Positions 28,734 to 29,402 of a stretch of 64,000 nt of DNA are shown here, in pieces. Position 1 is the first letter of the stretch. The number at the start of each line of letters is the position of its first letter. Where the stretch lies: positions 6,572,001-6,636,000 of the forward strand of contig OZ024760.1 in NCBI GenBank assembly GCA_964016885.1. Direction: 5' to 3'. Both the position numbers and the translations under genes were made by a program. Below the pieces are notes generated by a model, which saw only the letters and a program-made list of their open reading frames with translations, did no database searches and was not told the DNA's origin. The DNA comes from Eledone cirrhosa (Eukaryota).

Positions 28734-28808
<75 letters not shown>

Positions 28809-28934
28809 GTAGGAGGTGAGTTTTATTGTAGTACAATAAAGCAATGCAGATATCGGATAAGAAGCACTCTACAGTTTGTAGGACTGGAGTATACATAATA
28901 TAAGATCAAAAGATGGTTAAAAGAGTTCCATGTA

Positions 28935-29001
28935 TTTTATTATGCGCATTTCAAAAACAAACATCATCATGCAATAATATTTGTGTTTTCATCAGATAAA
29001 A
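28935..29001 (-). ncRNA. Minimal hammerhead ribozyme, intact core
   Basis: Reverse complement of 29101-29167. Confidence 0.8.
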
Positions 29002-29100
29002 CAGGAGAACATGATATGAAGGCTAAAAAACACTTGTGAATGTTGATTTAAAACTGCACTATCCACAAGTGTTTTTTAGCCTTCATATCATGTTCTCCTG

Positions 29101-29167
29101 TTTTATCTGATGAAAACACAAATATTATTGCATGATGATGTTTGTTTTTGAAATGCGCATAATAAAA
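29101..29167 (+). ncRNA. Minimal hammerhead ribozyme, intact core
   Basis: ttttat-CTGATGA-aaacacaaatattat...atgtttgttttt-GAAA-TGCGCA-TA-ataaaa; palindromic stem III, AUA site. Confidence 0.8.
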
Positions 29168-29402
29168 TACATGGAACTCCTTTAACCATCTTTTGATCTT
29201 ATATTATATATATATATATATATATATATCGTCATCATCATCGTTTAACGTCCATCTTCCATGCTTGCATGGGTTTGGATGGGAGTTTTCCTACTTGAGG
29301 CAAGAGTGGTTGTCTTGCTCGCATAGGACTGTCTGGCGGGTTTTCTACGACTGGATGCCCTTCCTAACACCAACCACGTTTACAGTGTGGAATGTACTAA
29401 AC

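Follow-up and report, generated by a model that had tools for sequence, protein, structure and literature searches.

Introduction

Insertions of EN+ Penelope-like elements (PLEs) that carry an inverted, 5'-truncated copy of the element together with a 'tail' have already been described (PMC8557442, PMC3846280), and PMC8557442 lists the origin of the tandem or inverted ends and of the tails among the open questions. The same source gives DKT, RWK and CxCx5C motifs, the lack of CCHH, and CxxC and CxH motifs as the marks of the Hydra clade of PLEs. For an anole PLE, in vitro studies showed that both target strands are cut and extended, with two internal start sites bounding the tail and no difference in start site between the strands, and the protein was predicted to be a dimer (PMC11167929).

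The role of the hammerhead ribozymes of PLEs is unsettled (PMC4209133, PMC11167929). Hammerheads with a palindromic stem III require a dimer, a single minimal motif does not cleave in vitro, and hammerhead pairs on opposite strands, 100 to 700 bp apart, have already been noted (PMC4209133). In the anole PLE, cleavage occurs only with the protein and is dispensable for insertion (PMC11167929).

Here we describe a fold-back with one hammerhead on each strand at positions 28808-29207 of a 64,000-nt stretch of the Eledone cirrhosa genome (contig OZ024760.1, positions 6,572,001 to 6,636,000; hereafter the window). A preliminary description, made from the sequence alone, had proposed a snap-back or template-switching origin and a possible off-switch for the ribozyme. 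As the insertion shape is already known for PLEs, the added value of the present analysis lies in the counts that narrow down the mechanism.

Results

The copy at 28808-29207 consists of two inverted arms, each 144 bp long with one mismatch between them, which flank a 25-bp spacer (Table 1), and (TA)n adjoins both of its outer ends. The near-perfect arms and the spacer reported for 28810-29207 in the preliminary description proved exact, as did the single outward-facing hammerhead per strand and the restriction of the family tail to one arm, the left one. The spacer is the element's own 5' end and part of the tail-less arm, not a loop of unrelated sequence; it starts at the fixed 5' end of the family, in a minor A variant (264 genome matches versus 12,488). 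Each arm therefore holds private sequence, namely the 25 nt of the short arm that are absent from the tailed arm, and the tail of the latter, so that neither arm is a copy of the other. The short arm terminates in AT-rich sequence that grades into (AT)n, and a target-site duplication is unreadable within the (TA)n repeat. Taken together, 28808-29207 represents an autonomous PLE that inserted into a (TA)n run in 5'-truncated, two-armed form. A further locus (L002, G000:C8:52929141) has a centre junction identical to that of this copy and different flanks; the common junction is probably recurrent and homology-guided. A non-LTR retrozyme, as defined in 10.64898/2026.07.22.740005, was rejected, since it needs a head-to-tail tandem of short hammerhead units, whereas the units here are head to head and belong to the pLTR of an autonomous element.

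Table 1. Features of the insertion at 28808-29207, in positions of the window; cut sites were predicted from the hammerhead consensus
Feature	Positions	Strand	Remarks
(TA)n target, left side	28745..28807		from sequence
Tail of the long ('T') arm	28808..28894	-	element nt ~171-257; in full-length copies continues into the ORF leader
Tailed arm	28895..29038	-	pLTR nt 24 to ~170, 5'-truncated
Type I hammerhead motif	28931..29005	-	core from 28995, palindromic stem III, predicted cut after 28941
'Spacer'	29039..29063	+	first 25 nt of pLTR, tail-less arm only
Short ('S') arm	29064..29207	+	pLTR nt 24 to ~170
Type I hammerhead motif	29097..29171	+	core from 29107, predicted cut after 29161
(TA)n target, right side	29208..29229		from sequence

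In the 3.0-Gb genome, the exact 29-nt ribozyme-core pattern matched 10,418 times and the tail pattern 8,674 times, with no match for either reversed control. The parent unit of 3,940 bp contains the pLTR, the tail, an ORF and a 3' UTR, in that order. Partial pLTR tandems were present at four loci (L094, L095, L109, L148), and ORFs of 738 to 821 aa, the largest counted from stop to stop, lie between pLTRs in L091, L094, L095 and L148. The ORF (800 aa) carries the reverse transcriptase (RT) motifs FD..S.Y, ITMG and YRDD, and its predicted structure (pLDDT 79.6) has telomerase RTs (TERTs) as best Foldseek matches; a Pfam search of the ORF gave no RT match and a PDB sequence search no match. The GIY-YIG endonuclease motif LIY..YFG lies at residues 678-695, in predicted strands followed by helices, and the C-terminal endonuclease domain is assigned by this motif, profile and fold searches having returned no match. 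By motifs and predicted fold, the parent is an EN+ PLE with a telomerase-like RT and a putative C-terminal GIY-YIG domain.

Several features of the ORF resemble the Hydra clade. It has DKT in place of DKG at residue 123, a CxCx5C linker (CNCRIKNKC) at 659, CNLC (CxxC) at 759 and CLH (CxH) at 787, no CCHH in the GIY-YIG domain and one C in the core of the latter. The RW motif at residue 35 reads RLRWT or RLRWI, the Hydra-clade form being RWK. The RT motifs agree by eye with the Hydra RTs printed in the supplement of PMC8557442, and the hammerhead in the pLTR and the insertion into (TA)n, both Hydra-clade traits, are present as well. The family carries Hydra-clade motifs, and its placement in the clade, by motifs, is putative; 18 homologues were found. 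In L091 (1492-3891), a low-confidence Asn/Thr-rich insert spans residues ~580-656 between the RT and the endonuclease and recalls the N-rich inserts of rotifer PLEs (PMC3846280).

The anatomy of the family was assessed at 106 loci around the first 100 core and the first 100 tail matches on contig C1, that is, in the first 63 Mb of one contig. We called 117 insertions, of which four at locus edges were dropped. Ninety-four of the 113 complete insertions were two-armed and head to head; among the 19 single-armed ones at least five had a tiny second arm. Both the PLE identity and the routine occurrence of an inverted partial copy, as anticipated in the preliminary description, are therefore borne out. 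The 3' ends in the family fall at two fixed points, nt ~170-175 (S) and nt 257 (T) of the element, and 83 of the 88 two-armed insertions with both ends classed (six of the 94 had an unclassifiable end) combined one S with one T end, the five exceptions being T/T (4) and S/S (1). The same pairing was found in 50 of 53 insertions at loci retrieved with the core pattern, a selection indifferent to the type of end. Outer ends adjoined (TA)n in 186 of 201 cases.

Because the event caller separates a plus end from the minus end that comes next, tail-to-tail pairs are uncountable, and the orientation was assessed by counting neighbours around core matches. Within 6 kb of the first 100 core matches on C1, 35 neighbours faced outward, one inward and two lay on the same strand, with distances of ~100 bp to 5 kb; the ORF of up to 821 aa lies within the long ones. 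The outward orientation, for which genome-wide orientation statistics had been proposed as a test, is thus non-random in this sample.

Palindromes are a known assembly hazard (PMC8557442), and an assembly or amplification artefact was therefore considered. However, the two arms are not identical, each has sequence of its own, and on many contigs they stop at fixed positions of the element. Moreover, the two ends joined to (TA)n also appeared in short-read contigs from four public runs, as did, in two of the four, one joint between opposite strands at the fixed 5' end; all runs are of one study and possibly of the assembly's own sample. We give an artefact virtually no credence.

The distance between the two arms of an insertion was 0.9%, compared with 5.2% between insertions (60 of the 83 insertions, those with sufficient overlap), and both arms of an insertion share one subfamily haplotype. 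Arm length ranged from <30 nt to kilobases, and the arms overlapped by at least 100 bp in 63 of the 83 insertions and by up to 2.5 kb. The S arm reached further 5' in 38 insertions and the T arm in 14, with 31 ties within 10 nt; each arm held sequence absent from the other in 38 of the 83, as in the copy at 28808-29207, and the two arms are truncated independently of each other. A whole ribozyme was confined to the S arm in 16 cases and to the T arm in four. When both arms were long (n = 22), they were symmetric within 70 nt in eight insertions versus 1.5 expected by permutation. On these sequence data, we consider it roughly 60% probable that both ends of one cut prime on the same element RNA and that the two cDNAs are joined head to head.

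A shared haplotype would also follow from one active source locus per cell or from later gene conversion. The main rival assumes two RNAs of one source locus, one per dimer subunit, which are copied independently from both target ends. It accounts for the overlaps of up to 2.5 kb without strand displacement and, provided that each germ cell has a single active locus, for the shared haplotype, and it agrees with the dimer predicted in PMC11167929. By itself, however, it gives neither the pairing of one S with one T end (83/88) nor the excess of symmetric long arms (8/22) nor the bias towards a longer S arm (38 versus 14), which makes it unlikely. The symmetric excess fits a shared broken RNA end, and equally a fold-back step.

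As to the snap-back or template switching of the preliminary description, snap-back alone is refuted for the copy at 28808-29207 and for 38 of the 83 insertions, because the tail-less arm reaches further 5' while only the other arm has the tail. A single cDNA that snaps back on itself, with later central deletions giving the asymmetry, would be compatible with the 45 insertions in which the short arm is nested or tied, with symmetric long arms offset by 10-40 nt, and with 32 perfect palindromes centred on the 8-nt stem III palindrome. The private sequence in each arm speaks against it, as do the perfect palindromes that persist at 9 of 92 junctions; later deletion should also shorten the arms equally, whereas 38 S and 14 T arms were the longer ones (p = 0.001). 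We regard this version as decidedly unlikely, although a fold-back step may help to form the centre. Two further candidates were not adopted. Collision of a trailing enzyme at the internal site is not established by the arms of at most 152 nt, which were tailed in 16 and short in 10 of the 83 insertions (p = 0.29, not significant). The origin of the tailed arm from the 5' pLTR and of the short arm from the 3' pLTR is disfavoured because a tailed arm that ends at the start site and has a long partner is nearly absent.

The inversion point had been described as always lying at a different place; within the family it is non-random, both arms ending at the same fixed 5' point in 24 of the 83 insertions. 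Genome-wide, 4,579 copies of the ~12,500 carrying ATATGTTG diverge from the template exactly before ATATGTTG. Among the first 100 of these copies, the extra base before ATATGTTG was G in 44, T in 40 and A in 16. Since full-length L1 insertions owe an extra G to the mRNA cap (PMC11702581), the fixed 5' end is likely, by analogy, a capped transcription start, and the extra-T class likely reflects TA annealing. A non-templated A at the 5' end was dropped as a candidate, the first genome search having been biased to the minor A variant (264 versus 12,488). Perfect palindromes centred on the fixed 5' end made up 9 of the 92 junctions, which were scored against one reference; junction homology was short and noisy, insertions outnumbering overlaps.

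These inner ends also bear on a model in which self-priming on an antisense transcript yields a head-to-head palindrome (PMC3846280). The model predicts the head-to-head geometry and the palindromic centres. It does not predict the cap signature, however, and the inner ends, located at an initiator-like TC|A of the sense strand with an extra G, fit the copying of a capped sense RNA, which is also the template in vitro (PMC11167929). Antisense self-priming is therefore highly unlikely.

The ribozyme core is intact. Stems I and II fold, whereas stem III, being a palindrome of 8 nt, forms a duplex (-10.5 kcal/mol) and no hairpin of its own. By analogy with the hammerheads of PMC4209133, that of the family is assigned to the type that depends on a dimer, and near inactivity is predicted for the lone ribozyme. 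A pattern for arms that begin at the predicted cut, nt 123-124, matched 185 times, compared with 28 and 51 for control patterns 8 nt upstream and 9 nt downstream. Inspection of 30 of these matches revealed 21 true junctions, corresponding to 20 events, and the partner arm started at or after nt 123 in 11 of the 20 versus 13 of 166 arms in the general sample. Among the first 100 matches, counted by eye, ~21 were a 3-nt deletion variant and another ~21 one recurrent junction joined through TTAA. The site at nt 123 is AT-rich, symmetric junctions also occur at other positions, and stem III is the centre of more perfect palindromes (32) than the cut is (19). We put the odds at about even that the modest excess of inner ends at nt 123-124 is a footprint of ribozyme cleavage in vivo. 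As a separate observation, one copy (L203:906-1815) runs from nt 122-123 through the tail into the ORF, as would be expected of a copy of ribozyme-cleaved mRNA.

The possibility that the fold-back is a selected regulatory device, which silences the ribozyme and feeds ADAR or Dicer, was weighed against the same data. A transcript with antisense followed by sense hammerhead would fold as a long hairpin, as had been suggested: the computed folding energy is -229 kcal/mol for the read-through hairpin versus -22.6 for one arm. Read-through RNA would hence form a near-perfect duplex, and 63 of the 83 insertions have an overlap of at least 100 bp. Nevertheless, a built-in off-switch is unsupported, given that stem III is unable to close alone and that single ribozymes of the type with palindromic stem III were inactive in vitro (PMC4209133), which leaves a ribozyme predicted to be nearly inactive already. 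Furthermore, in 24 of the 83 insertions at least one arm is devoid of a whole ribozyme, arm length varies from <30 nt to kilobases, and a transcript from the central start would hold the sense copy only. A regulatory device is very improbable, and dsRNA from the fold-backs may be a side effect, hence no device.

The window is microsatellite-rich (33% masked). Nine sites had been listed as having the same geometry; all nine are fold-backs with one tail, but the complete core (CTGA-N-GA..GAAA) was present on both strands at only three (28810, 41035, 46838), on one strand at two (47828, 54136) and on neither at four (16718, 3747, 42169, 57732). The other eight sites belong to other families, 28808-29207 being the only copy in the window that matches its family, and tails of 78-90 nt were found in seven of them. 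An Rfam scan of the window yielded no hammerhead family among the 150 of 262 matches listed, only microsatellite-driven miRNA look-alikes. In the fold-back at 41037-41209, of another family, stem III of both hammerheads is, by eye, 3 bp long and not palindromic; these hammerheads might be capable of cleavage as monomers, which makes the fold-back a better test case for the off-switch idea. The fold-backs at 46838-47225, 47828-48265 and 54136-54482 are related and represent one further PLE family, whose tails are 87-90 nt long and whose palindromic stem III is of the TATATA type. Other families are also represented by three isolated hammerhead-like cores on the minus strand (188-212, 32065-32102 and 57615-57636). 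A 509-aa open frame at 29977-31509 (minus strand) contains an RVT_1 domain and a PHD-finger match near the cut-off (score 27.9, cut-off 24); judged from these matches, it is a non-LTR retrotransposon fragment with a putative C-terminal PHD finger. The regions 32497-32605 and 33197-33271 comprise perfect 42-bp arms together with an adjoining 75-bp piece that recurs in inverted orientation 500 bp away.

Discussion

The outward-facing ribozymes are best read as a by-product of integration. Extending the in vitro finding on the anole PLE, in which both strands are cut and extended from two start sites bounding the tail (PMC11167929), we propose that the endonuclease would cut both strands of (TA)n, and that priming would then start from one target end at the internal AT-rich site and from the other at the end of the tail. 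Both cDNAs would stop at the capped 5' end of the RNA, at a break or early, and their 3' ends could be joined by short homology or fill-in, a step that would also supply second-strand synthesis, each cDNA templating that of the other. The centre might form by cross-annealing of the cDNAs or by fold-back of the longer one; the sequence is compatible with both. In short copies such as 28808-29207, the cDNAs would reach the RNA 5' end or end early, and short two-armed copies are likely dead ends. The start site is strand-indifferent in vitro (PMC11167929), which does not account for the pairing of one S with one T end and speaks against the proposal.

A more specific proposal is tentative, and we hold it at somewhat below even odds: obligate twin priming in the Hydra clade, with one RNA, two fixed start sites, one for each target end, and two cDNAs that template each other's second strand, whose junctions record the capped start and, in ~1% of events, RNA that the hammerhead had already cut. 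If true, this would be the first sign of germ-line cleavage by a PLE hammerhead with a palindromic stem III, and thousands of junctions would constitute a fossil map of RNA 5' ends. In the open-access literature, we found no study that applied twin priming to PLEs. A young family of about ten thousand copies turns the questions of PLE integration into countable tests, and the one-of-each rule, the same-template arms, the cap signature and the possible cleavage footprint make sharp predictions for the existing in vitro system. As a by-product, such genomes also hold perfect hairpins by the thousand, from which dsRNA might arise.

Like the EN+ PLEs described so far, the family shows partial tandems, a head-to-head inverted copy, a tail at one end and microsatellite targets (PMC8557442, PMC3846280). 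It differs in the length of its tail (82-87 nt versus a typical 30-40 nt, which is no strict criterion), in that the two-armed form is the rule (94/113), and in that the inverted arm is often the longer one, up to kilobases. With the Hydra clade it shares DKT, RW, CxCx5C, the lack of CCHH, CxxC/CxH near the C-terminus, the hammerhead and (TA)n (PMC8557442). Its unit of ~3.9 kb exceeds the Hydra-clade size of generally <3 kb, RW is followed by T or I instead of K, and the Asn-rich low-confidence insert (~580-656) is a further difference; by eye, the family protein also differs from four Hydra proteins, compared by their beginnings.

The L1 twin-priming inversion is comparable in that priming from the second target end takes place internally on one and the same RNA, and in the cap-linked extra G (PMC11702581). 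L1 arms, however, abut with gaps or overlaps of 1-10 bp, whereas those of the family overlap by at least 100 bp in 63 of 83 insertions; this large overlap rules out the L1-type product, although the working is alike. In the family, unlike in L1, the second start site is fixed and the two-armed product is the rule. The PLE hammerheads of PMC4209133 resemble those found here in their long stem II, palindromic stem III and dimer dependence; the accessible text of that study does not describe any footprint in the genome that would point to cleaved RNA being copied occasionally. The accessible text on the anole Poseidon element PAc (PMC11167929) likewise describes neither a strand-specific pairing of start sites nor reads ending at the ribozyme cut, but PAc has the same two internal starts bounding the tail, cutting and extension of both strands, and AT-rich targets.
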